From the sequence record OP617741.1: a DNA stretch of 64,000 bases. One strand, written 5' to 3'. Position 1 is the stretch's first letter. Each line of letters begins with the position of its first letter. Position numbers and translations under genes: made by a program. Positions 2,049 through 23,771 of this stretch are shown here, piece by piece. This stretch comes from Klebsiella phage KP13-16. The notes below the pieces were generated by a model. The model did no database searches. It saw nothing but the letters and a program-made list of their open reading frames with translations, and was not told the origin of the DNA.

Positions 2049-2057
2049 TATATCACC

Positions 2058-2901: not shown

Positions 2902-3053
2902 TACTGCTCCCGATAGTCATCCAATGCATTTGCAATAGTTTCAATAGGATCATGTTCTTGATTAATGATCTCATAAATGCTTTCTGCACTCGCATAGTAA
3001 CCATCATCTCCAAAGTACCAAGCTAAGGCTGTCATAATTTCTTCATATGCACT
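2898..3053 (-). CDS. small hypothetical protein (51 aa)
   Basis: Unlisted ORF MSAYEEIMTALAWYFG..., RBS GGAGGTG, stop overlaps nrdG start (TAATG). Confidence 0.4.
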
Positions 3054-3065
3054 CATAAACACCTC

Positions 3066-3356: not shown

Positions 3357-3360
3357 AAAA

Positions 3361-5481: not shown

Positions 5482-5565
5482 TATTCCTCCAAAATAAGAA
5501 GCCAGCATTAACTGGCTTAAAAGTAGATCCTTATTTTAGCTTTTATTCTGGTTTCAAATCTTGAT

Positions 5566-5973
5566 TTAAATCAGATAAGTTTGAAGAATAGTCTTTGCTA
5601 ATTGATTATCTACTGTTTTGCCAGCAGCTTTAGCAACCATGTTAATTTTACCCATGAAACTCATAGTGATTTTATCACCATTCTGTACCGCAGTATCCAA
5701 GAAATCACGAATCTCTTCTTCACTCAACTGTGCAGGAAGATAACTTTCCATAAAAGCAATTTCTTCTTCATACTGTTTCAGTTGTGCTTCATGACCTTCA
5801 AGACTTGCACGAGTAGATTTTACAGTAGACTTAATCAAGGCAATAGCATCTTCATCAGTTGAATTTTTATCTTGTGACAATTTTCCTAAAAGAAAGGTTA
5901 GAGTAGCAACCTTTTCTTTATCACCGGATTTACGAAAAGCAAGTTGGTCTTGTTTCATTTTCTCAATAATCAT
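5566..5973 (-). CDS. GatB/YqeY-domain protein
   Basis: ESYLPAQLSEEEIRDFL closely matches YqeY EEYLPEQLSEEEIEAIV; start MIIEKMK after AGGAGA, TAATG overlap with upstream gene. Confidence 0.7.
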   Translation of the reverse strand: MIIEKMKQDQLAFRKSGDKEKVATLTFLLGKLSQDKNSTDEDAIALIKSTVKSTRASLEGHEAQLKQYEEEIAFMESYLPAQLSEEEIRDFLDTAVQNGDKITMSFMGKINMVAKAAGKTVDNQLAKTILQTYLI

Positions 5974-6605
5974 TAATATTCTCCTATTCCACAATAAAGA
6001 GTTTCTCTTGTATTATTTAAATCTTCAGAAACTCTATTAATTTCTTTTTGTAAGATATCCTTATACTGAGGATATTTTTCTATCAAAGTTAAACCTTGAT
6101 TTATATACAACATTTGCCAAGCTCTATGTGCTTCAACAGGATCTGTGAAACCATGTATGGCAATATCATGAAACCTAGCCCTATATCGAGGTACTTTCTG
6201 ATATTTATTTTTCTGTTCAGAAACTCCCAATGGTAAATTATTTTTAGAGTATCTTTTTATAATATAATTATTTAAATCTTTACCTACAAAACCACAGGTG
6301 CTTGGAGAGTATATTTTACTAACCCCAGATAAGAGATCCTTGTCCAGTTCCTTTCCTTCCCAATCTTGGGTTTCCATCCAGGCACGAAAATTACCAAATG
6401 TCAACCATTCTTCACAAACACTACAACCTTTATAAGTAGGAAATCTTCTTTGGTAATTTTCACTATAACAACGCCTTAGCATATTCGTCCAACGATCATA
6501 ATATGGATCTCGCCAAAATACAACTTCTTTACCATTCATACGTTTACTTTTTTGAGTTATATCTTCTAGATCATTGTATCCCTTACCAAAAAGTAATTTA
6601 TTCAT
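5973..6605 (-). CDS. putative homing-endonuclease-like / AP2-type DNA-binding protein (paralog A)
   Basis: Shares W..ML.RCY, C.V.EEW..F.NF..W, LPLGVS, AH..WQ, NRETL blocks with ORF 10999-11661. Confidence 0.5.
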   Translation of the reverse strand: MNKLLFGKGYNDLEDITQKSKRMNGKEVVFWRDPYYDRWTNMLRRCYSENYQRRFPTYKGCSVCEEWLTFGNFRAWMETQDWEGKELDKDLLSGVSKIYSPSTCGFVGKDLNNYIIKRYSKNNLPLGVSEQKNKYQKVPRYRARFHDIAIHGFTDPVEAHRAWQMLYINQGLTLIEKYPQYKDILQKEINRVSEDLNNTRETLYCGIGEY

Positions 6606-7894
6606 TACAATTCTATCTCAAGTAAGTAATCAAGTCTAACTTGACTCAGGTCAAAGACTACAATCTCATCATTTCTCACCCCAGAGTATCCAGCCTTAGC
6701 CCAATAAGATTGGTATCCTTTTGGAGGGCGTTGACTTGTTGGTCCTGTTGGGGTATAAGCATTTCCAACAGCCACTGAAACTAGAAACATGTAAACTTTT
6801 CCATTCCCCTGACCACCACCCGTATAATACATGTTATCACAATATTGGAGACTTTTTGAAGATTGATTTGCGAAATACAATCCTGTTGAGAACATGGCCC
6901 CTGCCTTAACACCAGGACTATCTTTAGGCATCATTAACCCTTTACAGAAAATAGATAACAAATTAGCTACACGTGTTCCGTGCCACAGTTCATGAACATT
7001 ACCATACTCTGTGATAGCTTTATCAAATGGTGCTTGCTGATTTCCAAGATTAATTTTATAGATATTCTTAACTTTAGAACCCATGATGCGACCGCCGTGT
7101 TGGGCATTTTTACTTTCATTGTAGTAATTAACAATACGATCAATTGTAGCAGAATCTTCAACATGAGAGATACCAAAATTAAAGATTTTTTCTACTTCAA
7201 CTTCTTCTTTAGGTTTATCTTCCTGATTCTTTTTAAGTTCTTCAATAAGGTCTAATGTTTCCAGAAGTGCTTTACAGATTTCACGTTGTTCGTCAATGTT
7301 TTTGTGACTAAACAGCAAGTGACGTTTATCACGTGTAGTTGCAACTTTATTAGGAATAAGAACAAAATAAGAATCATTTAAAGTTAAGATCTCATCTTCA
7401 CCTTTACCACTCTTTTCATATTCATCCAAAAGGGATTCAATATTACCAAGATGGATCATTGCTTCTTCCACAGCAGCTTTCTTTACAACTCCTAAAGGAG
7501 TCTTAAACAGACCATCTTTTTCATCATATTTAATGTTAGTAGAACTGGTGATATTATGGATGTTTGCTTTAGCAATTGCTTGAATAAGATTACGACTTGT
7601 GTCGTCTTTACAATCAATTTGCTTAAGTGCAATGTCTACTACGTTAACTTTTTGAGTCAACCCAGTTTCACCAGAGACAGCTTCTAGTTGTGCTTCTTTA
7701 TAACCTTTCTTGATTTTAGATGCAACAAGACTGTCAAACTTCTTTTTACCACCAGAGTAGGAGGTAGTTTGAACCCCGCCACCTACCCGACCAAAACGAA
7801 CTGCAATATTTCCAACGTCATCTAAGGTTGCTTCATAGAATTTATTGTTATTATTCTTTGAATCAAACATGATTAGCATTTTACTCTCAGACAT
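6605..7894 (-). CDS. WGR-domain poly/mono-ADP-ribose polymerase (PARP)-like protein
   Basis: N-terminal KFYEA...RFGRVGGGVQ...KKGYKE matches WGR consensus; LWHGTR...GAMFSTGLYFANQSSKSLQYC matches the PARP1 H-G-S / Y-Y block and a later NDEIVVFD glutamate; RBS GGGGGTGAA. Confidence 0.85.
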   Translation of the reverse strand: MSESKMLIMFDSKNNNNKFYEATLDDVGNIAVRFGRVGGGVQTTSYSGGKKKFDSLVASKIKKGYKEAQLEAVSGETGLTQKVNVVDIALKQIDCKDDTSRNLIQAIAKANIHNITSSTNIKYDEKDGLFKTPLGVVKKAAVEEAMIHLGNIESLLDEYEKSGKGEDEILTLNDSYFVLIPNKVATTRDKRHLLFSHKNIDEQREICKALLETLDLIEELKKNQEDKPKEEVEVEKIFNFGISHVEDSATIDRIVNYYNESKNAQHGGRIMGSKVKNIYKINLGNQQAPFDKAITEYGNVHELWHGTRVANLLSIFCKGLMMPKDSPGVKAGAMFSTGLYFANQSSKSLQYCDNMYYTGGGQGNGKVYMFLVSVAVGNAYTPTGPTSQRPPKGYQSYWAKAGYSGVRNDEIVVFDLSQVRLDYLLEIEL

Positions 7895-7931
7895 TTCACC
7901 CCCTGTTAAGTGAATAAAAGGGCTTTCGCCC

Positions 7932-8369
7932 TTAAAGTTTTTCGAGAAGTTTCAACACAGCTTCTTTATCAAGAACAGTTGAACCGAGGAGTGCTTCAAC
8001 CTCTTCAATTTGGAATACATCTCCAAGTTGGTGGGTATTGACTGGAGGACGGATCTTATCTTTGTGGTTCAGAAAAAGATCTTCTTCAAATCCATCTCGA
8101 ACATATTTCCCTTTCAAATCTGTAATTTCAACAAGCTTAATCAACTTATGAAGTTTTTCAACACGAAACTCAGGTGCTACTTTAGCTTCAACTTCTTCAC
8201 GGAGGTCATCCAAAGAGCTTCGAACAGTATCAAGTTTCTCATAAACTTCTTCAAAGAAGCTAGAATCTAAAATATATTCCATATCTTTAAGAAACTCTTT
8301 GGGAGAGTTTTCAGCATACTCTTTAAGATCTTCAAACCAATCATTAATTTTATCAAACAGTGGATTCAT
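7932..8369 (-). CDS. hypothetical acidic protein
   Basis: 145 aa ORF. Confidence 0.5.
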   Translation of the reverse strand: MNPLFDKINDWFEDLKEYAENSPKEFLKDMEYILDSSFFEEVYEKLDTVRSSLDDLREEVEAKVAPEFRVEKLHKLIKLVEITDLKGKYVRDGFEEDLFLNHKDKIRPPVNTHQLGDVFQIEEVEALLGSTVLDKEAVLKLLEKL

Positions 8370-8396
8370 AAATTACTCCTCTAATTAGTACTACAA

Positions 8397-8756
8397 TTAT
8401 ACCTTTTCAAAATCAATATCATCGCAATCGTTGACATCTTCATAAACGTCACCAAAGTCTTTAATTGCATCTTTAATAATCTCCATATAGATTTGGTGGT
8501 CTCCCCAGTGACCTATGCTAAAGATAATCTTCTCCCCATCATAAATCTCTTTATAATCTACAGAACATGAGTGTGTCATAAAGATGATCCTAGACTCTTT
8601 TGCAGTAACAAAACCTAACCAAAAATGGTTAAAATCTGAGGTAGAAATTTCTCCTTTAATTCGAGTGAAATCTCGTAGAGCAGAATACACTGCCCCATAA
8701 ACTTCTAAAGCTTTATCTTTTGAACAACAAACAAACACTTTATGATCAACACTCAC
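8397..8756 (-). CDS. hypothetical protein
   Basis: 119 aa ORF. Confidence 0.5.
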   Translation of the reverse strand: MSVDHKVFVCCSKDKALEVYGAVYSALRDFTRIKGEISTSDFNHFWLGFVTAKESRIIFMTHSCSVDYKEIYDGEKIIFSIGHWGDHQIYMEIIKDAIKDFGDVYEDVNDCDDIDFEKV

Positions 8757-8768
8757 AATATGCCTCCC

Positions 8769-9416
8769 TTAAAAGGTCTGATTTAGCTCCGTTAGAGTCA
8801 TAACAGAACCTTCTTGAGTCAGAATAAACTCATTGTCTCCAACAGAGTCAAGAGTATAACTTCCTTTTGGTGTTTTTACAAGGAAAGAATCCACATTTAC
8901 AGTAGTGAAACCAAAAGAATTTTCCTCAAAATATCCATTTTTAACCTCTGGAGTCAAACCAATGCAGATAGCATCACCTTTAACACATAAAGCTTTTACA
9001 TTTTTAATGGTATATTTTTCACCTGTTGAATAGTAAACGGTAATGTCAGTTTTCTTACGAACTGGGACTGGTTTACGCTTCTTGTGAAAACGTGGTTTTG
9101 CTACTTTAATTTCTTTATTCATTTCTTCTCCTAAAAGTGCATTAACAAATTCTTCTGGTTTAACATAATAGTATTCATTATTAGACATGGCATCTAAGTG
9201 CCATCCGGTGAGTGTAGTCCCGGCATTATGACTTACAAGACACCATATATCTTTTTCATCATAACTATTGAAATTATTGAAAAATCTAATAAAATCTTTA
9301 TAACTCCAGTCTTCTGAAACATCAAGAGAAAGAAATATTTTTCCTAAAATACTACGATAATTATCTTCACCATAAAATTTAACAAATTCATTTTTTAAAA
9401 CATAGCCTTTATACAT
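8769..9416 (-). CDS. hypothetical protein
   Basis: 215 aa ORF. Confidence 0.5.
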   Translation of the reverse strand: MYKGYVLKNEFVKFYGEDNYRSILGKIFLSLDVSEDWSYKDFIRFFNNFNSYDEKDIWCLVSHNAGTTLTGWHLDAMSNNEYYYVKPEEFVNALLGEEMNKEIKVAKPRFHKKRKPVPVRKKTDITVYYSTGEKYTIKNVKALCVKGDAICIGLTPEVKNGYFEENSFGFTTVNVDSFLVKTPKGSYTLDSVGDNEFILTQEGSVMTLTELNQTF

Positions 9417-9535
9417 ATTCTATTTACCTATACGATCAATTAAAGTTAAGTCCAATACCACCGGAAGGAATAACAACCATCCAGGATAATCTTCTTGAAA
9501 TAAGTGTCTTAAGACAATATAACTAATTACTGTAA

Positions 9536-10465
9536 TCACTTCTTATCTCCACTTTTACTTTTCATAATAGAGCTTAAAGATACAAGCGGGGTTTTGGGTA
9601 CAGGTTTCTTTCTAGGGACATAATTTTTGACAAATGGATTAAGATTTTTAGCAATCTCTGGGATGGACATTCCTAAGAGTTTGCTTGCTTCTACCATTTT
9701 TGATCCCACCTCTTTTCCTACAATTACCATGTTATCTTTAGTATAACCTTGGGTTTGGTCTAACAGGATAAAGACTTTTTGAGACAGTTCAATTGTCTCT
9801 CCTGTTAATTTGCACTTAGTTCCTGAAAACTTAGCTTTAAACTCTGCAAAACTAACTGTAAACTCTTTCTTTTCCGCAGAGGCATGTTTAGCCATATCAG
9901 AATAGTAAGAGGCAATGCGTACATCTGGGGCAATCTGTTTATCTGACATCTTCAGGACTCCTTGATCATTACGGGATAGTTCAATTTTTTGTGTTAAGAC
10001 ACCATTCAAGTTATCATAAAAATTTGTATAGTCAATATCTTTAAAATAATTTTTATAAACATTAGATTCAAATTTAATTAAATGGTTGTATTTATAAGAT
10101 AAAAACTTTTTATACCCTGGTGTAACTTTCTCTTGAACCACTCTCAAGATTGCTTCAGATGTTTCATTGATCCTTACTACTTGTACTTCGGTTTTGTCAA
10201 GAGCATAATCTTTTATTCTATTTACTGCTGCTGAAGTTAAACAAACATTCCCTCGTTCATAACCGAGTTTATCATCTAAACGTTCAATGGATATCTTATG
10301 TTTATCCTCATCAAAGGTAACACCAGTATAATCACACTTACCGTCATTCCGTAAGAAAAGTACTTTCATATCTTCAAGGGTTAATTTGAAATCAATACCA
10401 CGCTTCCTGGCATCTTTTTTCTTAGATTCAAAACGTTTTTTGAGTTCTTGTTCGTCTAACTTCAT
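9536..10465 (-). CDS. HNH-endonuclease-like protein with two tandem HNH-type repeats
   Basis: Two copies of C.YTG....S(I/L)(E/D)R(L/I)D...GY...N(V/M) pattern typical of phage HNH nucleases. Confidence 0.5.
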   Translation of the reverse strand: MKLDEQELKKRFESKKKDARKRGIDFKLTLEDMKVLFLRNDGKCDYTGVTFDEDKHKISIERLDDKLGYERGNVCLTSAAVNRIKDYALDKTEVQVVRINETSEAILRVVQEKVTPGYKKFLSYKYNHLIKFESNVYKNYFKDIDYTNFYDNLNGVLTQKIELSRNDQGVLKMSDKQIAPDVRIASYYSDMAKHASAEKKEFTVSFAEFKAKFSGTKCKLTGETIELSQKVFILLDQTQGYTKDNMVIVGKEVGSKMVEASKLLGMSIPEIAKNLNPFVKNYVPRKKPVPKTPLVSLSSIMKSKSGDKK

Positions 10466-10474
10466 ATAGACCTC

Positions 10475-10990
10475 TTATTTGATCACAGTGGCATTTTCAG
10501 GGATTTCAGCTTCATCAAGTACATAGATGGTAACATTGTACCCGGCTTCACACAATGTCTTTTTGATAATATCTTCAACAGAAGACCACTCTGCTCCTCC
10601 AAGACCTGCACCAAGTTTGGGAAGTCCAATTTTAAGATCCTGATTTTCAAAAAGCATTAGCTGTTTAGACATAGCTTTGAAAGAAGATTCAAGCTTATCT
10701 AAATCTGTATTTGGTTTTCCATCCTCACGTTTCCACCAACCCCACCGTCCGTATAAATTATAAATACTTAAATTATACAATGGAGAATGGGCATATGAGA
10801 AATCTCCAAATTTTTTAGGGTCTCCTTTAATAGTTGAATCATCTGCAATAGCGACTTCCGGGAAAGCTTTATCTAAAAGTGGGGCAATCCCACGTTTACG
10901 TGCATTAAAACAGTTACATTGTTGTGCAATAACATTTACTTCTCCACTTTTTGCAGCCAATAACAAATCCATCACTTTATATTTCAACAT
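10475..10990 (-). CDS. macro-domain protein (ADP-ribose binding / hydrolase)
   Basis: VNVIAQQCNCFNARKRGIAPLL and IGLPKLGAGLGG resemble the macro-domain N..N...GG.gv..ai and P.i..G.gG blocks. Confidence 0.6.
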   Translation of the reverse strand: MLKYKVMDLLLAAKSGEVNVIAQQCNCFNARKRGIAPLLDKAFPEVAIADDSTIKGDPKKFGDFSYAHSPLYNLSIYNLYGRWGWWKREDGKPNTDLDKLESSFKAMSKQLMLFENQDLKIGLPKLGAGLGGAEWSSVEDIIKKTLCEAGYNVTIYVLDEAEIPENATVIK

Positions 10991-10998
10991 ATTACCCC

Positions 10999-11661
10999 CT
11001 ATAATTTTAATGTCTCTCTATTTAAACTTATATCTTCTTTTATATCTTGGATCCTATCAAGTAAGGCAGTTTCAACAACCTTATTAAAGTGTGCAGATTC
11101 TTTATATTTTTGTAAGCTTTCCTTGATTGCAATAATTTTATAATCTTGCCACTGTTTATGAGCAAGGTCTGGTGAGTTATGATAACCTAGATAAACAATC
11201 TTACCAGATACATGACAATAAGCTTGGAACCTATCCCTATGATGAGGCTTTTTCTTCTTTTTAAGACTTACCCCTAGTGGGAGGTGTCCTCTTGCAGATC
11301 TACTATCTGTTAATAGGCAGTTAATATAGTTCGGAACCATAACGCAAGTCTCTTTACTATAAAGCTTATTACCTTTAATTAATATATCCTTATCAATGCA
11401 TAAATTATCAAAATCCTTAGATATGGCCCAAGCTTTAAAATTTGAAAAGTATTTCCACTCTTCACTTACAGTACAACCTTCATAGACAAAATAATATGGA
11501 TCTTTTTGTTTTAAATTATAACATCTTCTAAGAATGTCTTTCCATCGGCTATATATCGGACAGAGCCAAATTTGCTTCCATTTACCATCTTCAAATCTAT
11601 TTATAGAGACAGGGTCTACACTATCATTAATGCCATAGTTATGTACAAGTTTTTGTTTCAA
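10999..11661 (-). CDS. putative homing-endonuclease-like protein (paralog B of 5973-6605)
   Basis: Paralogous to 5973-6605 across whole length. Confidence 0.5.
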   Translation of the reverse strand: MKQKLVHNYGINDSVDPVSINRFEDGKWKQIWLCPIYSRWKDILRRCYNLKQKDPYYFVYEGCTVSEEWKYFSNFKAWAISKDFDNLCIDKDILIKGNKLYSKETCVMVPNYINCLLTDSRSARGHLPLGVSLKKKKKPHHRDRFQAYCHVSGKIVYLGYHNSPDLAHKQWQDYKIIAIKESLQKYKESAHFNKVVETALLDRIQDIKEDISLNRETLKL

Positions 11662-11675
11662 TCAAATCTCCAACT

Positions 11676-12059
11676 TTATAGACTAACTTGTTCTGCATCC
11701 TTCATCTCCATAAGTTTATCTAAATAATCTTTTGCCATCTTCTTATAATCTTCCGGGAAGTATTCACGATAGTAGTCTTCAAGAAGCATCATGATGCTTG
11801 GCTCTGGTCCACTTTCAATACTTGCACATTGCGGGCGCAAGTCGAAGAAATTCTTTTCTTTCTGTAACTTTGCTTCTTCGATTAACTTATCAACTTCTTT
11901 AATTTCAAGTTTAATCTTATGACAAGTTTTACTGAAATAACTTTGATCCATCTTTTTCCTGTTCACCGAACATTTTCGAAAGGAATGCAAATCTCTGATA
12001 AGTTCATTTCTAAAATTATTCAAAGCTATAACTAGTTTTTTGTTTTTATTCATTACCAA
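11676..12059 (-). CDS. hypothetical protein (paralog of 14443-14718)
   Basis: ALNNFRNELIRDLHSFRKCSVNRKK...EVDKLIEEAKL aligns with AVLRKQRNNVIEDFRHFKRDRVNRKW...EMDKLIAGVKL. Confidence 0.5.
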   Translation of the reverse strand: MVMNKNKKLVIALNNFRNELIRDLHSFRKCSVNRKKMDQSYFSKTCHKIKLEIKEVDKLIEEAKLQKEKNFFDLRPQCASIESGPEPSIMMLLEDYYREYFPEDYKKMAKDYLDKLMEMKDAEQVSL

Positions 12060-12292
12060 GGTGCCTCTTCTAATTGGGAATGGGAGATGCCCATCATATC
12101 TGCCAGATCGTCTTTTGTCAACAATTTTCTTTCAAACAAATTTGTAACCAGCAAAACAAACATCTCACCTACGTTATTATTAGATTGCTCTAATAGTAAC
12201 TGCTCAAGGTTAAAAGTTTTAGTATCACTATAATCCTCATTCGTAAGGAAGAAATGCTTTTGTTGTGGGTTTAGCATAGGTCTTTTCCTCAA
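12053..12292 (-). CDS. hypothetical protein
   Basis: 79 aa ORF. Confidence 0.4.
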   Translation of the reverse strand: MRKRPMLNPQQKHFFLTNEDYSDTKTFNLEQLLLEQSNNNVGEMFVLLVTNLFERKLLTKDDLADMMGISHSQLEEAPW

Positions 12293-12518
12293 ATCTCAGT
12301 TCGCCGTTAAGTTTTTCAATTCTATGTGGGAGAACATCCTGGCCCCACCAAGGCTTTTCATGAATACGATAACTCCAGACTGTCATGAAAGAGTCTTCTT
12401 CAGTGCCTTCTCCTTTGATTCTAACAGTCTTATTATAGATATCCCGGATAGTAGCTTCTATCCCATCTACTAAGACAATCTCATGAATTCTGTAAGGCAT
12501 CTGGTATTCATTAGTCAC
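12237..12518 (-). CDS. hypothetical protein (GTG start overlapping nadR-like stop)
   Basis: GTGA start/stop overlap, RBS GGAG. Confidence 0.4.
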   Translation of the reverse strand: MTNEYQMPYRIHEIVLVDGIEATIRDIYNKTVRIKGEGTEEDSFMTVWSYRIHEKPWWGQDVLPHRIEKLNGELRFEEKTYAKPTTKAFLPYE

Positions 12519-14116
12519 AAATATGCTCCAAGAATATGTTCTGAATAAACCTCTTCTAGAAAATCTTCCCAAAATTCCTTATCTACTGAAGAAGGATAAT
12601 GAGAGTTTTCTGCTAAAATTTCAACTTCCTGTACAACCTTCTCAAGTTCTTCCTGAACCTCATTGAAAGGCATGTTACCAGTCTTAACAGATAAAATCAA
12701 GGGATTTTGTTCCATAGGATAAACAAGATCACCATGCTTATAAATGTTAATAAGTTGATATCCACCACGAAGAGCGTGGCTCAGAGCTTTCCAATCCACA
12801 CCTTGATTAGCCTCAGCCAAACGTGCTCTATCGCCATATTCTTCCCACAGTTTAAATAAAGACGTCTTCATTTCTTTTACTGAGACTGTTTGTTGAAACT
12901 TTCTTCCAAGAACTTCATAAAAGATTTGATTTACACCATTTTTATCCGTAGCAAAGATCCAATATGCAAACTCATTGAGTGGAAAATATTCTTTGAAATC
13001 ACCAACCTTTTTAGAATCATCTATTGTTTTAATACATTCTACAACTTCACGTAATGCTGCAAGCCTGGAGCCTTTAATTCCATACTTAGATGCTTGTTTC
13101 CTTACATAACCAAAAAGCCCTGTCAGCTTTTTAGTATAAAAACGGTGACGATTGTCACGAATATATTGCCACGTTTCAGAATTGGTTACGAGCTTACTAT
13201 CTGTATCTTGCAAACGGAGAGGATCAGCCACCCACTCAACTTCTGGGGAAAGGTATAGCACCATGTCGTAGAAGTTATGAGCTTCTTCAACAGCCAACGA
13301 CATAAACATACCATCATTGTAGCTCACTTTACCAGCACAAATTGCAGAAAAATGTGTTATAAGATTGGTTGTATCTGAAATATGCACCACATGTGCCTGA
13401 TTTGAGTTACTAAATTCCTCAATACGGTGGATCATAGCAATCTTAAGATATGCTTCACGATCCATTAAAAATTCACTGCCATTGTACATCTGTTCGCAAA
13501 TATGCCGCCCTACTTCGGGTGTTGATGTTGTTCCATAGTGCTGTGCTAGAAGCTCAGTCATAGTGGATTTGCCAGTGCTCTCAACACCAATGATAGCTAC
13601 ACGTTTTACAAAACGAGGACGAGCTTGATCTGAAAGATACTCGAAGTTATCACGTAGATTAGTACGAATACGTGTTGCAGAGATATCCACTCCTGTACGC
13701 TCTGCATCCAACACAACATGCTCCACCTCTGGGAAATGCTCAGAGAAGTACTCAGTATACTCCGGCTCAGAAGAGAAAGCATGTGTCAACACTTCCCCTT
13801 CTGGGATTTTAGCACGAATCAACTCAGCATAAGCCTTACCACCTTCTGGATAACCAGGAATATCAGACTCATCCACATAATCTACAATCACTTTGTGTTG
13901 TAACCCTGAGTCTTGAATTAAAGATTTAAGATCCAATAAACGCTGGGTTAAACCTAGACGGTCTTGCATCCAAGGTGTTTGAGTGTCGTTAAACTTCTGG
14001 TCAAACGACAGAAACAGGTATAGCCGATCAATACCTGAATCTACAGCCATACGAATGAAGTTGACGTGTCCTGCTGTCAGGGGTGCAAATTTACCTAAAA
14101 TTAAGCCTACGTTCAT
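12515..14116 (-). CDS. nadR: NadR-like bifunctional NMN adenylyltransferase / ribosylnicotinamide kinase with extra C-terminal domain
   Basis: N-terminal GKFAPLTAGHVNFI (HxGH-type nucleotidyltransferase), central P-loop GVESTGKSTMTELLA as in NadR RNK domain, about 180 extra C-terminal residues of unknown family; no HTH. Confidence 0.8.
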   Translation of the reverse strand: MNVGLILGKFAPLTAGHVNFIRMAVDSGIDRLYLFLSFDQKFNDTQTPWMQDRLGLTQRLLDLKSLIQDSGLQHKVIVDYVDESDIPGYPEGGKAYAELIRAKIPEGEVLTHAFSSEPEYTEYFSEHFPEVEHVVLDAERTGVDISATRIRTNLRDNFEYLSDQARPRFVKRVAIIGVESTGKSTMTELLAQHYGTTSTPEVGRHICEQMYNGSEFLMDREAYLKIAMIHRIEEFSNSNQAHVVHISDTTNLITHFSAICAGKVSYNDGMFMSLAVEEAHNFYDMVLYLSPEVEWVADPLRLQDTDSKLVTNSETWQYIRDNRHRFYTKKLTGLFGYVRKQASKYGIKGSRLAALREVVECIKTIDDSKKVGDFKEYFPLNEFAYWIFATDKNGVNQIFYEVLGRKFQQTVSVKEMKTSLFKLWEEYGDRARLAEANQGVDWKALSHALRGGYQLINIYKHGDLVYPMEQNPLILSVKTGNMPFNEVQEELEKVVQEVEILAENSHYPSSVDKEFWEDFLEEVYSEHILGAYL

Positions 14117-14135
14117 GGGGTCTCCTTTGTCTAAT

Positions 14136-14172
14136 CAGTTTGTATCTTAGATTACTATTAAGTAATTGTCAA
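14136..14172 (-). promoter_or_regulatory. sigma70-like promoter upstream of nadR-like gene
   Basis: Minus strand TTGACA-17-TAAGAT followed by AAGGAGA RBS and ATG. Confidence 0.5.
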
Positions 14173-14442
14173 CTGTTAATTGGTTAATTAGGTATGTAGT
14201 TTGTTTTACACTTACAATGATACACCTCTAGGTAGGATAATCAAGGAAATAATAGTAAATCGTATAACTACTATGGACATAGTATCCATAATACCTCCTA
14301 TAAAAGAAAAGCTATCCGTCCCTTCCTATCTAACGATAGTCAGGAACGAATAGCTATAGAATCTCCCCTCGCTTCGCTCGGCACCTTGTAGGGTTAGGGT
14401 AGCATATTTTTCAGCGAAAGTCAATATCCCTGAGACATTTAT

Positions 14443-14718
14443 TTAAGGCAGTGGAAAGTAAATTGTGTTGGACTCGTAATCGTAGTAGTATTGTATTCCA
14501 GTTTCACGAGATACACGTAGCGCCAGCTTAACTCCTGCAATGAGTTTGTCCATTTCAGCAATCTCTTTACGGAAGCGTGTTACTGTGTGAGAGAATGCAC
14601 TATGTGGCACCCATTTACGGTTTACACGATCACGTTTGAAGTGACGGAAATCTTCAATGACGTTATTGCGCTGTTTACGCAGTACAGCCATCAGGTGGTA
14701 ATACGGATGTTTGTTCAT
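14443..14718 (-). CDS. hypothetical protein (paralog of 11676-12059)
   Basis: Paralog alignment, higher GC context. Confidence 0.5.
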   Translation of the reverse strand: MNKHPYYHLMAVLRKQRNNVIEDFRHFKRDRVNRKWVPHSAFSHTVTRFRKEIAEMDKLIAGVKLALRVSRETGIQYYYDYESNTIYFPLP

Positions 14719-14729
14719 TATTTTACTCC

Positions 14730-15008
14730 TTACTTAGGGAACACAGAACCGGGGGTAGCTTCTTCCATTTGCAGAAGCTGTTCACACATACCATACACCT
14801 CTCCGTATGTGATCTCGGTTATACCTGTGTCGTCACAAATCATTTCACACAGTTTATTAATGTCTATGCCACCGCAACGCTGCTCGGACTTACGCATCCC
14901 TTCACCTTCTTTCCAGTCAACTGGAGACTGGAGAAGAATCAGTTCTCCATTACCCAGTTCAACCAGGTAATCTGCAATATTTTCGCGTGGGGTATATTGT
15001 TCAGTCAT
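14730..15008 (-). CDS. hypothetical protein
   Basis: 92 aa ORF. Confidence 0.45.
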   Translation of the reverse strand: MTEQYTPRENIADYLVELGNGELILLQSPVDWKEGEGMRKSEQRCGGIDINKLCEMICDDTGITEITYGEVYGMCEQLLQMEEATPGSVFPK

Positions 15009-15430
15009 TTTATCTCCTTAACAAAATCAGATGCACGATCAAACCAGAATGTGCAATGTTTTTCAGTGGCTTCTATTAAAGCATCAAATGCTTCTTGTGT
15101 CAACTCCACAGGGGTATACCGATTTGGACGCTCATAGTATAAACCAGTATAAGTCCTTTCAAAGTCTTTCTGGCGTTCTTTCAGGCCTTCCACGGTTAAG
15201 CCTACCATATACCCATCCTGTTTACTACCCCAGCCTGCTTCAGATTCGATAACAGGGATACAGAAGCCATAAAAACGCTCTGTATCGCTCTCCACCGGGT
15301 TTTTAGCAGAAGCCGCACCGTTTTCCCATCCCTCTTTAAAAATCGTATACAGCTTCTCGTAGAGGCTTCTATTCGAGCCTTCTTTGTATGGGTGAAGTTC
15401 TTCAAACTTCGCACGAATAGTGTTTGTCAT
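15005..15430 (-). CDS. hypothetical protein
   Basis: 141 aa ORF. Confidence 0.5.
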   Translation of the reverse strand: MTNTIRAKFEELHPYKEGSNRSLYEKLYTIFKEGWENGAASAKNPVESDTERFYGFCIPVIESEAGWGSKQDGYMVGLTVEGLKERQKDFERTYTGLYYERPNRYTPVELTQEAFDALIEATEKHCTFWFDRASDFVKEIK

Positions 15431-15441
15431 AAAAGCTCCTT

Positions 15442-15573
15442 ACTCCATTAATGAAAAAATCAAACAAAGAATTTGTCCACCAATACAAATAAATCCTGCG
15501 GTAAGGTTATCAAAACCCCAAATGAAAACATTTGCTAAAATCATCAATAAAATATTAAGACCAAACCACATCA
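15442..15573 (-). CDS. small hydrophobic membrane protein (43 aa)
   Basis: Unlisted ORF MMWFGLNILLMILANVF..., strong RBS AGGAGGTGA. Confidence 0.4.
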
Positions 15574-15897
15574 TTCACCTCCTTTAGGGATGTATTGCGG
15601 CATAGGCATGTATGCCACTACAGGCTCCCAGTCAAAGTAGAAACGACCATTAATCACTGCAAACTTACCACTACCACCCTGTACAACTTGGCAAACACCG
15701 TATTCCCCATCAGCCATGATGACAACCCAGTTGCCGAATGGCATGTTGTGGATACCATCAACATCAATCCAAGGATGTTGTAAACTGTAAATCTTGTTTA
15801 CGACCTCTGTGAAGTCTGGATCATACAAACCGAGGTCATGCGCAATGTTCAACAACATTTCTTTGTACAGTTCTTCACGTGTCATAGATTCAGCCAT
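15571..15897 (-). CDS. hypothetical protein
   Basis: 108 aa ORF. Confidence 0.5.
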   Translation of the reverse strand: MAESMTREELYKEMLLNIAHDLGLYDPDFTEVVNKIYSLQHPWIDVDGIHNMPFGNWVVIMADGEYGVCQVVQGGSGKFAVINGRFYFDWEPVVAYMPMPQYIPKGGE

Positions 15898-16274
15898 TAG
15901 CGTACTTCCAAGCTTGGGATTAAGGTTTGTGGAGCAAAGATAACACGAGTGTGATCAACACTCACCTGAGCACCATCAATTTGCTCAATGAAATAGGTGG
16001 TATCCGTAGAGAGTCCCATATAATGTTTCTTCACAGAACCGTTAGCCTTATCACGACAAGTGATGATCAGTGTACGATCAGTGCTACTGTTATCTTTCGC
16101 ACAGTAACCTTCAATACGCATTAACTCTTTGTCTGTACGAGTGTTGATGAAGTGGGTGGAACGCAACACTTCGAAGTTATCGCCAGCGGTGGCGATGTTA
16201 CGACTTGCAACGTCAGCAGCTTGTTCACAACCAGCCAAACCCAAGCATAAAGCAATCAGCAGAATCTTTTTCAT
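15897..16274 (-). CDS. lipoprotein
   Basis: Signal peptide with lipobox LAGC (MKKILLIALCLGLAGC). Confidence 0.65.
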   Translation of the reverse strand: MKKILLIALCLGLAGCEQAADVASRNIATAGDNFEVLRSTHFINTRTDKELMRIEGYCAKDNSSTDRTLIITCRDKANGSVKKHYMGLSTDTTYFIEQIDGAQVSVDHTRVIFAPQTLIPSLEVR

Positions 16275-16440
16275 TTTACTCTCCTTCTTTATTCACAATT
16301 TTGTAGTATGGAAGTTTCTTAATCAACTCTTCCGGTATACCGCTTTCAGACCAAGTGGCTCCACCGTCTGTAGAGGCGTAGCCCTTGTTGCCAACGTACT
16401 TACGCATGATAGCACGAAACATGTTTTGATAGATAGTCAT
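16270..16440 (-). CDS. hypothetical protein (56 aa)
   Basis: Unlisted ORF MTIYQNMFRAIMRKYVGNKG..., ATGA overlap with upstream ORF. Confidence 0.4.
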
Positions 16441-16517
16441 TTACAAATACACCCACCAGAGAAAATACTACCATAACATTTCTCGCACATAACATCTTCA
16501 ATAAATAATATTTTCAT
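16440..16517 (-). CDS. tiny Cys-rich peptide (25 aa)
   Basis: MKILFIEDVMCEKCYGSIFSGGCICK with RBS GGAGGAAG; ATGA-coupled on both sides. Confidence 0.3.
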
Positions 16518-16975
16518 TTCTTCTTCCTCCTTTTAAGTTTGTTGTGACCACGACCTTTCGTGATACGGAAGTTGTAGTTCTCCTTCTCACGAGGCAGTGT
16601 AGGAGATCGTGGAGAGATACCTACCCAGTAGTCCATAGTATCAGCAGTGTAGCATCCTCCTGTGAACAAAGCAATAACCCTACCCTCTAGTGCAGAGTAA
16701 TTGTCACATAAAACTACCGCTTTAACTTTCTGACGGTCTTTCCCCGTAGATGCTCCAATAACACGCAACTCATCTTTTGTCTCACTTTCAAGAATCATCC
16801 ATCCTTCATGCTGCCAATCATAGCCTTTGTCCCAACCAGCCATAGGGTAGCCATGCTCATCGAAAATTTTACCATCTTCCATATAGAAGAACTCCTCGCT
16901 GGTAAAGTGACGGTTCTTAACACGTTTACCTTCACGCATTGCTTCTTGGGCTTGAGTCCAGGTTAATTCGTACAT
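16514..16975 (-). CDS. hypothetical protein, possible DUF2829 (Tad2-like) fold
   Basis: Start MYELTWTQAQEAMREGKRVKNRHF... resembles DUF2829 N-terminal alpha-helix/GKKV.R.gW pattern; basic C-terminus. Confidence 0.35.
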   Translation of the reverse strand: MYELTWTQAQEAMREGKRVKNRHFTSEEFFYMEDGKIFDEHGYPMAGWDKGYDWQHEGWMILESETKDELRVIGASTGKDRQKVKAVVLCDNYSALEGRVIALFTGGCYTADTMDYWVGISPRSPTLPREKENYNFRITKGRGHNKLKRRKKK

Positions 16976-16976
16976 T

Positions 16977-17216
16977 TTACCCTCTCTTTTCAATTTTAGT
17001 AACATTACGAGGCCAGATGATATCTCTGCTATTATAACTAATTGTATCACCTCCTCGGATGAAACGATAGTTATTTCCCCACCCTTGTTCCCAAGCGAGG
17101 GCAACTTTAAAACGTTCACCATCTTTTGTTTCTATAAAGAAAGTTTCTTCATAATCTGGGTTGTCATAAATATTATCACAAGCCTGCTCTGTACCACTAA
17201 AATTCTTAAAATCCAT
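16977..17216 (-). CDS. hypothetical protein
   Basis: 79 aa ORF, TAAAATG junction with downstream gene. Confidence 0.5.
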   Translation of the reverse strand: MDFKNFSGTEQACDNIYDNPDYEETFFIETKDGERFKVALAWEQGWGNNYRFIRGGDTISYNSRDIIWPRNVTKIEKRG

Positions 17217-17218
17217 TA

Positions 17219-17596
17219 CTATACTCCTTTACAGAAGTTAACCACATCTTCATACGAGAGTCCAGCACGCTGGACCGCGTTCCGAATAGTTTCCTTTGCT
17301 GATTGAATGGCTTGCTCTTTTTCTTTCAAAAGTTGAGCGTTAGTTTTAACTTTACCAACCCAACCACCATAAGATTGCTGTCTGATTTCTGCAAACAGAT
17401 GTTCTAATTCATTAGCTGGTTTAGCTATGAGTACTGGATTACCTACCTGAGTAATACTATACTCATAATATTCATTTTTACCAATACTTTTCAAGTACTT
17501 AATTGCATGTTCCGGGTTGTCTGCTTCAACATAGCCAAGATGCTTGATAGTACGGCCTTCGCAATCACCTTCAGTAGTTACTTTATAAATAGGCAT
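17219..17596 (-). CDS. hypothetical protein
   Basis: Start MPIYKVTT after AGAGGAGAGAAAAG. Confidence 0.5.
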   Translation of the reverse strand: MPIYKVTTEGDCEGRTIKHLGYVEADNPEHAIKYLKSIGKNEYYEYSITQVGNPVLIAKPANELEHLFAEIRQQSYGGWVGKVKTNAQLLKEKEQAIQSAKETIRNAVQRAGLSYEDVVNFCKGV

Positions 17597-17656
17597 CTTT
17601 TCTCTCCTCTTGTTTGTATGCAACAATCTTAGCAAACTGAAAATTAAAGTCAATAG

Positions 17657-17684
17657 TTGACATCAAATATTTTTAGAGTAAAAT
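17657..17684 (+). promoter_or_regulatory. sigma70-like promoter at strand-switch point (TTGACA-16/17-TAAAAT)
   Basis: Perfect -35 hexamer, AT-rich -10, located at divergence of minus and plus gene blocks. Confidence 0.5.
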
Positions 17685-17990
17685 GTGTGTATCTTAACCA
17701 AGAAAGCAGGTCAATCTCATAATGAGTACCTTTCAGGCATTTTGTATTCTTCTGATGCGTGTCGTGTGAAGCTGGCTGACCTTCGTCACAACATAGATAT
17801 TCGTCGTTTAAAAGGTTTGCGAGAAAAAGACTTTGCAAGAATGCAAAAGTATCTTAAGATGTACAAAACTATTGAGATGATGCTTGAATGGGATGTTTTG
17901 CATAGCCCAGCAGCTTACTTTTCTCTTGGGGATTATTATGAACATCGTGTTAGTCACATTGAGGAACTCTTGAATGATAAAGGCAACTAA
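17685..17990 (+). CDS. hypothetical protein (start uncertain; ORF begins inside promoter -10)
   Basis: Open frame only; listed GTG start overlaps the -10 so true start must be internal. Confidence 0.3.
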   Translation: MCILTKKAGQSHNEYLSGILYSSDACRVKLADLRHNIDIRRLKGLREKDFARMQKYLKMYKTIEMMLEWDVLHSPAAYFSLGDYYEHRVSHIEELLNDKGN

Positions 17991-18261
17991 AAACATTTCA
18001 GAAACTGTTGACGGTTATGGGATCATAATTGCTGTCCATGGTGACAATGAAAAGTGGTTAGCTTCTTTTGAGGAGGACGAAGACCGTAACATCCGTCTGG
18101 ATGCACCAATCAAGGTTTTGCATCAAGTTGGTGAACAGAAAACATGCTTGAGGTCTTACAAAGAGTATAGTGTGACGAATGATCTAATAAAAATGCTTGA
18201 CTTTGTAATTGAGTTGTTCGAAAATGCACCAAAAGACATCAAACGTGTACTTGCATTCTGA
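17974..18261 (+). CDS. hypothetical protein
   Basis: RBS GAGGAA. Confidence 0.45.
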   Translation: MIKATKNISETVDGYGIIIAVHGDNEKWLASFEEDEDRNIRLDAPIKVLHQVGEQKTCLRSYKEYSVTNDLIKMLDFVIELFENAPKDIKRVLAF

Positions 18262-18272
18262 GGAGAACTAAA

Positions 18273-18542
18273 ATGTCCATTGGAAAACTTGAGGTTGGAG
18301 ATTTACTTTTAACACAGACTTATAGTGGGAAAGAGATTGTTGAGATTTGCCAGTACCGTGGAGAGACAGGATCTTTAATGTATACGCTTTATCATCCAGA
18401 TTTACTGTTAAAATCAAATCTTGAACGTTTTGTAAAAGATACAGATTCAATGCCATACTGTATGAGTATTGTTCGTAAGAGTAACGCAGAAAAATATCAA
18501 TATATTATTGATATGATTTTAAAAAGTTCTCAGGAGGGATAA
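18273..18542 (+). CDS. hypothetical protein
   Basis: RBS GAGGAGAA. Confidence 0.5.
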   Translation: MSIGKLEVGDLLLTQTYSGKEIVEICQYRGETGSLMYTLYHPDLLLKSNLERFVKDTDSMPYCMSIVRKSNAEKYQYIIDMILKSSQEG

Positions 18543-19009
18543 TGGCTATTCCAGATTATGCAGATCAACGTTCCTACAACCGTTTTCGTAAAAGTTTTGT
18601 AGGTAGTTTTCATGGTGAAAATGGCAGTAGTTATAGGATGTATTGGAGTCCTGAATGTAACACACAACCAACTAAGATGGTCTTTAGCTCAGGTGCTCCA
18701 ATTTGTGCATACTGTGGTCATGAAGGTTTACCTTTACAACCTTATATTGAAGAAGGTGATTATCAGGTTTACGGTTATGCTTGTGTATGTAAAGGTGCCA
18801 TGGATGAAGAAGCTTGGCAACAAGAACAAGCTACATTGATAAGCAACCATCAAAAAGAAATGGAACTACTTTTAGAACGTAAACCCAAAACAAATCCTGC
18901 TGTGATTAAGGGTTTAATTAATACTCTGACTCGTCGTCTCCAAGAAGCTGAAACTTTAGATGACGTCAACACAATCTTAGATAAATTAAAATCTATTCAC
19001 GAAGATTGA
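18542..19009 (+). CDS. hypothetical protein with Cys-rich (Zn-ribbon-like) segment
   Basis: CAYCGHEG...CVCKG. Confidence 0.5.
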   Translation: MAIPDYADQRSYNRFRKSFVGSFHGENGSSYRMYWSPECNTQPTKMVFSSGAPICAYCGHEGLPLQPYIEEGDYQVYGYACVCKGAMDEEAWQQEQATLISNHQKEMELLLERKPKTNPAVIKGLINTLTRRLQEAETLDDVNTILDKLKSIHED

Positions 19010-19035
19010 TTTTTATTTAAATTCAGGAGTTTATT

Positions 19036-19404
19036 ATGAATGGTTACTATGTACCGATTAAAGTTCAGATTGTACAAGATAAAGATCTGATTAAACAAGA
19101 GTTTGATTCCATTAACCCAGATGGGCGTTATAGTTTAAATGAGTTATTCCCTGGTGTTACTTCTGGGAAATTTGTCAAAATTGATAGTTTCTTTATCAAT
19201 GAAGATGATGAACAAATCCTTACTGTTTCTTTCTTCAGGGATGGTGGTCAAGGTACACCTTACAAAGAAGTTTTATGCAAACAAGAAGCAAAACTTTGCA
19301 TGGACCACAGTAAACGTAAATTTTATATTGACACTCGTTTTGGTGTGTATTATCTTTCTAAAGGGGATTTAGACATCGTTCATAAGTTGAAGAGTAGAAA
19401 ATAA
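19036..19404 (+). CDS. hypothetical protein
   Basis: RBS AGGAG. Confidence 0.5.
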   Translation: MNGYYVPIKVQIVQDKDLIKQEFDSINPDGRYSLNELFPGVTSGKFVKIDSFFINEDDEQILTVSFFRDGGQGTPYKEVLCKQEAKLCMDHSKRKFYIDTRFGVYYLSKGDLDIVHKLKSRK

Positions 19405-19625
19405 TGAATCAAAATACTTTTGTTTGTCCGGGAATGATTGTAAAACTACCATATAAGCTAGGTGATTCCGTAGTGTATGCTCACTGTGTAGTTGTTCAAG
19501 TTTTTAGGTATACAGTTGATATGGAAAATCTTAAAACACGAAATATTTTCCCTGTTGACATTTCTTCACTTAGGCAACACGGTGAATTAATTGGCTATAG
19601 TTATAAGGAAAAATGGAATGATTAA
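19404..19625 (+). CDS. hypothetical protein
   Basis: ATGA-coupled to upstream ORF. Confidence 0.45.
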   Translation: MNQNTFVCPGMIVKLPYKLGDSVVYAHCVVVQVFRYTVDMENLKTRNIFPVDISSLRQHGELIGYSYKEKWND

Positions 19626-19712
19626 ACCTTTAGAGTATCATGGGACGAATAAACCTTACACAGCAATGGATTTAATCCTTGCTAAACAAAAACTTATGAA
19701 TGAGGTAAAATA

Positions 19713-19868
19713 ATGAAATTACTTATTACTGATATCCGTGCATTTGAAAATTACGGTGCTGCTTTATCCTGCTTAGGTGCATATTCTGTTGGTGATATTT
19801 TAGAATACAATGAACATATGCCAATCTTTGAAATCTTAATTGAAAGAGGCTGGGTGGCTAAAGTATGA
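19713..19868 (+). CDS. small hypothetical protein (51 aa)
   Basis: Unlisted ORF MKLLITDIRAFENYG..., RBS GAGGT. Confidence 0.35.
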   Translation: MKLLITDIRAFENYGAALSCLGAYSVGDILEYNEHMPIFEILIERGWVAKV

Positions 19869-20062
19869 TAACTTTATCTGGTTGGGTTGTAGTTGCTACT
19901 TTGAATGGTAAGCAAGAAATAGACCAAGCACAAATTTATAAAACTCCTGCAGAATGTTATGTAGCTTTGCATTGGCCTACTACTCAAGGAGATAAAGCTT
20001 CATATGATTGTTTTTATATTGAAGGTAAGCCCGTCAAATTAGAAGTTAAGGAGATAAAATGA
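19865..20062 (+). CDS. hypothetical protein
   Basis: ATGA-coupled. Confidence 0.45.
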   Translation: MITLSGWVVVATLNGKQEIDQAQIYKTPAECYVALHWPTTQGDKASYDCFYIEGKPVKLEVKEIK

Positions 20063-20253
20063 GTATTGTTAGCAAAGAGACACTTGATTATATTAAGAAA
20101 AAACGTTCAGATGCTTTAGCTAGAACCTATTATGAAAACAAATATCATAATGCAATGCGTGGTTTAGATTCAGCAATTGCTATCTTAGAGCAAATTGAGC
20201 ATACCACACAAGGTTTGTCTATTGAGACTAAAATTACATTGAGTAAGGATTAG
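20059..20253 (+). CDS. hypothetical protein
   Basis: ATGA-coupled. Confidence 0.45.
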   Translation: MSIVSKETLDYIKKKRSDALARTYYENKYHNAMRGLDSAIAILEQIEHTTQGLSIETKITLSKD

Positions 20254-20261
20254 GAGGAAAT

Positions 20262-20510
20262 TTGACTAAAGAAAATATTCAAGAGAACACTATTGACTTC
20301 TCTGCACACATCTATGATAGTCCACATTTTGATGCCTGGCGTTATTCAGTTAAAACTTCTCCAGATTTTCCTGATGTTGTCGTCCTTTCATATGAAGAAT
20401 TTAATGAAAACTTAAAAGACTATGTAAGTAATGGTGAGATCTCTTTTGATCTTGAAACATGGAATAAAATTCAACATGCTGTAGATGTTTTATTCAAAAA
20501 CAATAAGTGA
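20262..20510 (+). CDS. hypothetical protein (TTG start)
   Basis: AGGAGG before TTG. Confidence 0.4.
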   Translation: MTKENIQENTIDFSAHIYDSPHFDAWRYSVKTSPDFPDVVVLSYEEFNENLKDYVSNGEISFDLETWNKIQHAVDVLFKNNK

Positions 20511-20518
20511 GGAACTAA

Positions 20519-21871: not shown

Positions 21872-21887
21872 TAATCAAAAATTAGCG

Positions 21888-21970
21888 GTCTAGAAAGCAA
21901 TATGAGAGGTTTTTAGAGAGAAGATATCCGTATGGGTTACTTTAAACTAAAACCTCTCAAAATCGTTTCT
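21888..21970 (+). terminator. nested inverted repeat (CTAGAAA/TTTCTAG outer, GAGAGGTTTT/AAAACCTCTC inner) downstream of NTase-like gene
   Basis: Seen directly; possible terminator or structured RNA. Confidence 0.35.
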
Positions 21971-22008
21971 AGGTGTCTTAAATTTGATCTGTAGTTTTAA
22001 AGGAAAAT

Positions 22009-22293
22009 ATGAGACGATTAACAGATAGAGAACAGATAGAATTCCTTATGGCTTACTTACCTTCTGTAGGACATACAAAAGGTACACCATTTGAAGAGGC
22101 AACTCTTACTCTGGATAGTGGAAGACCTTTTGACATCTACTCTATGAAAGAAATTTTAGAGCTTTTGCACCATATGAACATAGTTGCTGCAACAGGTGCT
22201 GTATCACCCACAGATAAATTTGTTTATATTTGGTTAAAGCATCATGGAATTATTGATGCGTTTTCTTACCTAAATGAACATATAAATAGTTAG
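22009..22293 (+). CDS. hypothetical protein
   Basis: 94 aa ORF. Confidence 0.45.
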   Translation: MRRLTDREQIEFLMAYLPSVGHTKGTPFEEATLTLDSGRPFDIYSMKEILELLHHMNIVAATGAVSPTDKFVYIWLKHHGIIDAFSYLNEHINS

Positions 22294-22480
22294 TAACCAC
22301 TATACCTATATGTTGTGTGTTTTGTCTTTTACAGACACTATAAAAGTCATGAACTTTGATCGGGCTGGAAGCCTTGGTATCTCTGGCCTGGAAGCAAAAC
22401 AGTATTAGGATGGAGTATAGTACCCTCCCAGAAATTATAATAATTATAATTAATCATATTAATATTAAGTAAGGAGTTAG

Positions 22481-23761: not shown

Positions 23762-23771
23762 GGTATTTACT

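Follow-up and report, generated by a model that had tools for sequence, protein, structure and literature searches.

A chimeric nadR-RlaP gene in Klebsiella phage KP13-16, probably born of microhomology-mediated recombination between two phage lineages

The DNA analyzed here, referred to as the window, is a stretch of 64,000 nucleotides from Klebsiella phage KP13-16 (sequence record OP617741.1). A preliminary description of this stretch had reported, at positions 12515-14116, an open reading frame (ORF) encoding a three-domain NadR-like enzyme, which was proposed to belong to an NAD/ADP-ribose module together with nearby PARP and macro genes. The ORF is indeed present, on the minus strand, as a single frame of 533 codons that begins with ATG and runs without interruption. 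Our analysis indicates that it is likely a natural chimera that arose when two Klebsiella phage lineages of Stephanstirmvirinae type recombined illegitimately through microhomology, and our confidence in its two-parent origin taken by itself is much higher than in this account as a whole. What had been taken for the third part of the enzyme is a non-catalytic remnant of an RlaP protein, joined to NadR at a microhomology of 10 base pairs (bp) with the loss of 47 kinase residues. Judged from its sequence, the gene is most likely a degraded, and probably redundant, derivative of a NARP3 enzyme, rather than a purpose-built or new enzyme design.

Domain scans assign the two parts of the ORF to different families. 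Residues 1 to ~308 match models for NadR-type nicotinamide mononucleotide (NMN) adenylyltransferase (NMNAT)/ribosylnicotinamide kinase (RNK) proteins (phrog_3462, E = 1.3e-102; TIGR01526, E = 1.5e-48; PF13521, E = 2.5e-15), an assignment that is far beyond chance, and residues 306-532 match phrog_388, annotated as 'nucleotidyltransferase', at positions 119-338 of 351 only (E = 3.3e-70). Coverage of the NadR-type models is incomplete: PF13521 is matched over positions 1-135 of 164 in the window ORF versus 1-164 of 164 in an intact relative (P0001), and TIGR01526 over 291 of 325 positions versus 324 of 325. The curated NCBIfam cut-off of 341 bits does not separate these phage forms, given that the window ORF scores 165.7 bits and the intact phage protein P0001 178.7 bits. 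No helix-turn-helix (HTH) domain was detected in the ORF, whose alignment to the full NadR model NF005988 begins at profile position 65; together with the phrog_3462 and TIGR01526 matches, this upholds its earlier placement as a NadR-like protein without HTH.

Nucleotide comparisons trace the two parts to two parents. By blastn, the nearest genome is that of Klebsiella phage vB_KpM_FBKp34 (Stephanstirmvirinae; hereafter FBKp34), with 99.2% identity over window positions 11001-13201, and positions 13192-14139 correspond to the nadR gene of phage KP2025 (95.7% identity), in a match that runs on into the KP2025 upstream genes to ~16976. In blastn results and in a three-way alignment, the FBKp34 and KP2025 high-scoring segment pairs (HSPs) overlap solely at the 10 bp of the left junction (GATAGTAAGC). 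This sequence encodes D-S-K in both parents (RLQDTDSK/REYTN in NadR and IHADDSK/LVTNSE in the FBKp34 protein, the slash marking the break), and the two reading frames are hence joined in phase. At the right junction, two FBKp34 HSPs (L001 8942-9187, 82% identity, and L001 9456-10029, 99.3% identity; L-numbers denote comparison records) overlap only at 17694-17704, where a donor-type promoter region is joined straight to codon 87 of backbone gene gp091. The foreign segment delimited by the two junctions stands in place of ~3.4 kb of FBKp34-like backbone, comprising gp092-gp100 and the 5' ends of gp101 and gp091, and three genes are cut by this module swap. Over residues 1-308/321, the KP2025 NadR-like protein (XCO36104.1) is 94.7% identical to the window ORF at the amino-acid level and 95.7% at the nucleotide level. 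This protein and its homologues in KP13-26, phi1_175008 and FKP3 lie in the same upstream gene neighborhood as the nadR part of the window and, unlike the window copy, are full length. The intact NadR parent has 355 residues, with P0001 94% identical and dozens of relatives ranging from 339 to 384 residues.

These data are consistent with a model in which a 4.5-kb KP2025/FKP3-like donor segment, carrying nadR at the same genomic slot, would have replaced ~3.4 kb of an FBKp34-like backbone through two microhomology crossovers. The left crossover would have split donor nadR after codon 308 of 355 and the backbone RlaP/NrdC.11 gene after codon 93 of 318, using the D-S-K identity and thereby bringing the frames together in phase, and the right crossover, at the 11-bp identity, would have removed the 5' end of another backbone gene. 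A simple deletion within a single genome harboring adjacent nadR and RlaP genes was considered and rejected, on the grounds that in KP2025-type records the only place matched by tblastn is that of nadR and that neither FBKp34 nor the contig encoding an intact RlaP protein (P0025) presents nadR at this slot.

Alternatively, reads from co-occurring FBKp34-like and KP2025-like phages might have been joined during library preparation or assembly, yielding a fusion that exists in no virion. Klebsiella pneumoniae is host to both parental types, which could co-occur, and the architecture is unique in all the collections searched. However, identities of 10 and 11 bp are probably too short for assembler joins, and the 4.5-kb segment, with its two clean junctions and 77-96% identity to each known donor-type phage, is not simply a second known genome spliced into the first. 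A real double crossover would account for both the in-phase D-S-K join and the truncation that matches it at the opposite end. We infer that the event was natural, and consider an artefact very unlikely.

The family to which the N-terminal part belongs has been characterized in other phages. Operons of phage NadR and PnuC were predicted in 2024 as a likely route of NAD+ reconstitution (10.1101/2024.02.11.579819), and in 2026 it was shown, with crystal structures, that in the NARP3 system a NadR-type phage enzyme and PnuC rebuild NAD+ against Sir2-HerA defence, both genes and both enzyme domains being required (PMC13464706). The conversion of nicotinamide riboside (NR) to NMN and NAD+ invoked in the preliminary description is hence sound for the NadR family, although it is no longer new and PnuC is not found in the window. 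The NARP3 enzyme Bas30_86 of Escherichia phage TrudiRoth (PDB 9X6H, 9X6F; PMC13464706) belongs to the same HTH-less, two-domain NMNAT/RNK family as the N-terminal part of the window ORF, and the donor-type protein P0001 matches 9x6f_A over 350 residues (E = 4e-52). Bacterial NadR proteins also match P0001 (1LW7 from H. influenzae, E = 2.8e-35; 8X7F from E. coli, 6.4e-35; 6GYE from L. lactis, 2.7e-17) and share its NMNAT and RNK fold and motifs, whereas the window ORF has no HTH repressor domain and a truncated kinase tail.

The NMNAT domain lies entirely upstream of the break. It contains GKFAPLTAGHVNF at residues 8-20, as previously described, but the HxGH motif there reads TAGH, an (H/T)xGH variant that in the active Bas30_86 is TRGH, and it is accompanied by a motif of the ISSTxxR type (ISATRIR). 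Bas30_86 and the window ORF have in common the motifs (T)xGH, ISATxxR, Walker A and Walker B as well as each residue mutated in the NARP3 study, with K10, F11, S37, E80, P84, G89, F110, S112, V139 and I141 all conserved in the window NMNAT domain. Throughout residues 1-308, the sole departures from columns at least 85% conserved in 69 relatives are F7L and L285M. The conservation of these motifs and mutated residues suggests an intact NMNAT domain, probably still capable of NAD+ synthesis from NMN and ATP.

The kinase domain, in turn, retains the RNK Walker A, Walker B and LID elements, with GVESTGKSTMTELLA (Walker A) at residues 177-191 and with E234 and D284 as equivalents of E230 and D275 in Bas30_86. 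The P-loop kinase domain of the preliminary description is thus present, but it is cut short. The break follows K308, and the fusion removes the last 47 NadR residues (donor codons 309-355), leaving the RNK fold without its C-terminal helix-strand-helix; the missing NadR tail was not found anywhere in the window. AlphaFold2 (AF2) modelling covered the two parent pieces separately rather than the joined chimera, and in the model of intact P0001 (pLDDT 92.4) a helix (306-323), a strand (329-332) and a second helix (337-353) lie past the breakpoint. In the alignment of 69 relatives, the lost stretch holds the invariant residues R309, T312, L316, Y324, V329, G334 and R340 and the near-invariant I332, so that closer alignment sustains the catalytic motifs of both domains up to the break but not the C-terminal invariants of the kinase. 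A MAFFT alignment combining the chimera and the two parent families was discarded, since it placed the RlaP rows wrongly over the NadR region. In P-loop nucleotide kinases, the strand that follows the LID is part of the central sheet, and the next loop helps hold the adenine of ATP. The RNK domain of L. lactis NadR runs ~60 residues past the LID (PMC7221760). Because the last helix-strand-helix and several invariant residues are gone, the kinase domain of the chimera is probably misfolded, unstable or inactive, and its conversion of NR to NMN has probably been lost.

The C-terminal tail had been described as some 180 extra residues of unknown family. It spans 225 residues (309-533), matches phrog_388 and corresponds with 100% identity to residues 94-318 of P0025, a 318-residue PF10127/RlaP protein; a single amino acid separates it from FBKp34 gp101, and it is ~60% identical to the T4-type NrdC.11 of RB43. 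RlaP extends RNA 3' ends by one or two nucleotides and is composed of a Pol-beta domain at the N-terminus, in which three Asp residues are essential, and a C-terminal helical domain, the last helix of which packs back on the N-terminal domain (bioRxiv 10.64898/2025.12.29.696909). Residues 1-90 of P0025 contain its GS motif together with D23, D25 and D85. Compared with RlaP/PF10127 proteins (T4-type NrdC.11, PfRlaP), the window ORF preserves the C-terminal helical domain and its terminal helix, as evidenced by the identity to P0025, the phrog_388 match and a helical AF2 model, but not the Pol-beta nucleotidyltransferase domain with its GS motif and three catalytic Asp residues, which is absent from the ORF and from the entire window. 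A Pfam scan yielded no PF10127 match for the window ORF or the tail fragment, and a search of PDB sequences with the RlaP-like family profile returned nothing significant. The tail is the helical RNA-cleft half of RlaP; since the entire catalytic domain is deleted, it is predicted to be incapable of transferring nucleotides and is most likely inert. In FBKp34, the RlaP/NrdC.11-type gene (L001 5357-6328) carries a single in-frame stop, a change from Q to stop relative to P0025, that splits it into gp100 and gp101; these are annotated as two coding sequences (CDSs), one of them a 'putative thioredoxin'. That this copy already has an in-frame stop suggests that the RlaP gene is dispensable in the FBKp34 lineage. 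The P0025 locus has an FBKp34-like gene order, and nadR is not nearby.

The combination of these two parts was not encountered elsewhere. Query coverage of the ORF reached at most 62% among 5.8 billion protein clusters, a HMMER scan of 1.84 billion representatives revealed no protein matching both halves among the best 150, and none of the phage records covers at least 80% of the ORF. In IMG/VR, matches were confined to residues 1-308 and the junction 40-mer had no exact match, and the junction 30-mer had no match in JGI metagenome contigs. Two metagenomic NadR-like proteins, P0138 (549 residues) and P0149 (516 residues), have the kinase tail in full and, after it, a further C-terminal region of ~175 residues that has no Pfam match; these are genuine longer architectures, unrelated to the window tail. 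The fusion appears to be very recent, given the 100% identity of the tail to P0025 and the single amino acid by which it departs from FBKp34 gp101. Sequence comparison provides no evidence that the fusion is maintained by selection. The ratios of non-synonymous to synonymous substitution rates (dN/dS) of the two halves against their own parents (0.07 versus KP2025 and 0.05) are uninformative on selection after the fusion, because almost no divergence has accumulated since.

The genomic context bears on the proposal that the ORF encodes a purpose-built three-domain enzyme, in which the tail would add a selected function within an NAD/ADP-ribose module including the PARP and macro genes. The PARP gene (6605-7894, minus strand) encodes WGR, PARP regulatory and PARP catalytic domains, according to the domain scan, and lies 4.6 kb from the chimeric ORF; a macro-like gene (10475-10990), with a weak PF01661 match (E = 0.026) and a phrog_335 'phosphatase' match (E = 1e-42), lies 1.5 kb from it. 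This proximity and the intact ORF favor the proposal. Nevertheless, FBKp34 has both genes in identical positions but no nadR alongside them, and in donor-type phages no PARP is annotated within ~4 kb of nadR. On this synteny, a conserved NadR-PARP-macro module was rejected, and the co-location appears to be a by-product of recent recombination, given that FBKp34 has PARP and macro genes without nadR beside them and donor-type phages have nadR with no PARP annotated nearby. Moreover, a gene that is intact elsewhere contains the tail sequence with 100% identity, which points to a very recent fusion, the catalytic half of RlaP is missing, and the architecture was found nowhere else in the collections searched. 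A purpose-built enzyme is hence extremely unlikely. The PARP is of eukaryote type, and its FBKp34 counterpart is annotated as gp111.

A second element of NARP3, the transporter PnuC, was not found in the window, with tblastn of the KP2025 PnuC against the whole window giving a best E value of 0.85. In KP2025, pnuC lies 750 bp downstream of nadR, and the genes downstream of the window ORF are FBKp34-type hypotheticals; pnuC would not have been carried along because the crossover left the donor copy outside. In FKP3 (L008 3498-4732), unlike in KP2025, there is no PnuC-sized gene downstream of nadR. The transporter appears to be variably present among close relatives with nadR at this slot. FBKp34 harbors elsewhere a NadR-like protein (gp201, 38% identical to the N-terminal part of the window ORF), a PnuC (gp203) and a Sir2 protein. 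In the same phage, gp196 is annotated as 'nicotinamide phosphoribosyltransferase' and gp198 as 'ribose-phosphate pyrophosphokinase', and the two are probably NARP1 Namat and Adps, because NARP1 genes typically receive such annotations. The FBKp34 NAD cluster spans 109568-121374 (L005 13569-25375), and the window, which maps to FBKp34 54465..1 and 141376..124224, ends ~3 kb before it. If KP13-16 resembles FBKp34 in that region, a reading drawn from synteny between the two, the chimera would probably be a redundant second, partial NadR copy.

Relative to NARP3, the match of the window ORF to Bas30_86 ends at residue 296 of 351, such that the last RNK helix-strand-helix is lacking, and the ORF bears a 225-residue foreign tail without an adjacent equivalent of PnuC (Bas30_87). 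On this comparison, the ORF lacks two NARP3 features, namely an entire kinase domain and a neighboring PnuC, and would represent at most the NMNAT half of a NARP3 enzyme.

Several observations weigh against the interpretation of the gene as a degraded derivative. A Shine-Dalgarno sequence (AAAGGAGA) lies 5 nucleotides ahead of the ATG of the ORF, and a promoter-like site is located upstream, although promoter-like sites show no enrichment over shuffled sequences. The chimeric protein is probably made, as judged from the uninterrupted ORF, the good Shine-Dalgarno sequence and the promoter-like site. There is also no sign of decay, with a dN/dS of 0.07 against KP2025, though most of that divergence predates the fusion. 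In addition, the sequence just after the break is likewise predicted to be helical and shares T312, N313, W317 and D322 with the lost helix, and on account of this helical replacement and these few common residues the kinase may conceivably be partly functional.

These observations raise the possibility that the chimera is a working NR-to-NAD+ enzyme, whose kinase tolerates the replacement of its end by RlaP helices and which operates as a NARP3-type system without its own PnuC, using that of the host or a second, phage-encoded PnuC. An ORF that looks expressible, the conservation of all motifs and of all mutated Bas30_86 residues up to the break, a model in which the first residues past the junction are helical and loosely resemble the lost helix, and the potential presence of an FBKp34-type PnuC elsewhere in the genome are in keeping with this possibility. 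On the other hand, the loss includes one strand of the central sheet as well as residues that do not vary in 69 of 69 relatives (including R309, G334 and R340), the NadR-like relatives listed or compared keep the tail, with P0138 and P0149 adding their extra domain after an intact one, and the NARP3 study needed both genes and both domains (PMC13464706). Such an enzyme is thus unlikely. No result obtained here speaks for a neo-enzyme in which an active NMNAT domain, attached to the helical, RNA-binding half of RlaP, would direct NAD+ synthesis or adenylyl transfer towards RNA ends, and we assign next to no probability to it; if true, it could, for instance, act with the PARP nearby and supply NAD-capping or RNA chemistry linked to ADP-ribose.

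Table 1. Coordinates of the chimeric ORF, its domains and motifs, and the recombination junctions in the window (aa, amino acids; nt, nucleotides)
Feature	Position	Strand	Remarks
Chimeric ORF	12515..14116	minus	533 aa, ATG start, stop codon 12515-12517; from ORF list, domain scans and two-parent origin
NMN adenylyltransferase domain	13619..14116	minus	aa 1-166, apparently intact
TAGH motif	14066-14077	minus	aa 14-17
ISATRIR motif	13664-13684	minus	aa 145-151
Ribosylnicotinamide kinase domain	13193..13618	minus	aa 167-308, ends just past LID-like loop
Walker A, GVESTGKST	13562-13588	minus	aa 177-185
Walker B, VVHISD	13373-13390	minus	aa 243-248
LID-like, WVADPLRLQD	13205-13234	minus	aa 295-304
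RlaP/NrdC.11-family nucleotidyltransferase remnant	12518..13192	minus	C-terminal helical domain only, aa 309-533
Left recombination junction	13192..13201	minus	10-bp microhomology GATAGTAAGC, codons D306-S307-K308 plus 1 nt
Right recombination junction	17694..17704	plus	11-bp microhomology TTAACCAAGAA
Foreign segment, ~4.5 kb	13192..17704		KP2025/FKP3-like, Justusliebigvirus-type origin (blastn against L001, L002, L006, L007 and L008)
gp091 remnant (metal-dependent phosphohydrolase homologue)	17685..17990	plus	5'-truncated, ~98 last codons left
Promoter-like site, TTGACA-17-TAAGAT	14144..14172	minus	upstream of ORF; consensus match only

Several further features were noted in the window and in the NadR-like relatives. 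Two HNH-endonuclease-like genes on the minus strand (9536-10465 and 10999-11661), 0.9-3 kb downstream of the chimeric ORF, flank the macro-like gene; they match phrog_3118, with Srd-like similarity, and phrog_953, and both are found in FBKp34 as well. The anaerobic ribonucleotide reductase NrdD (3361-5508, minus strand) comprises 715 residues in the window versus a CDS of 3018 bp in FBKp34 (47975-50992), in which ~900 bp (roughly 48500-49400) have no window counterpart; this suggests that the FBKp34 insertion is an intein or homing element. A 10-kb region of the window (46805-56773) is 82.8% identical to FBKp34, with neighboring regions at 95-99%, and appears to be another mosaic genome segment. 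Among the NadR-like proteins, P0002 and P0003 (667 residues) and the FKP3 CDS at L008 4734-6740 (annotated as 'RNA ligase') contain a 312-residue in-frame insert inside the kinase P-loop (GVES/C...ITGN/CGKST, slashes marking its ends). The insert has Cys at position 1, Cys at +1, a terminal Asn, a TxxH block and LAGLIDADG-like motifs, and judged from these motifs only it looks like an intein; a Pfam scan of the P0002 insert produced no match at E ≤ 1. P0136 (659 residues) and P0254 (701 residues) resemble these insert-bearing forms.

The chimeric gene adds little to NAD biology, given that the NadR-type phage route has already been characterized as NARP3. Its value lies in providing a cleanly resolved case of phage mosaicism, in which both junctions (10 and 11 bp) of a 4.5-kb swap were located and both parent genes are intact elsewhere. 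For the annotation of anti-defence genes it carries a warning, since a complete pathway is not proven by a match to a model of NadR, NARP3 or NMNAT, and fusions of this type often give rise to misleading 'novel architectures' in genome scans. At the same time, a single event would have instantly given rise to an in-frame, multi-domain ORF, the raw material for new phage proteins.

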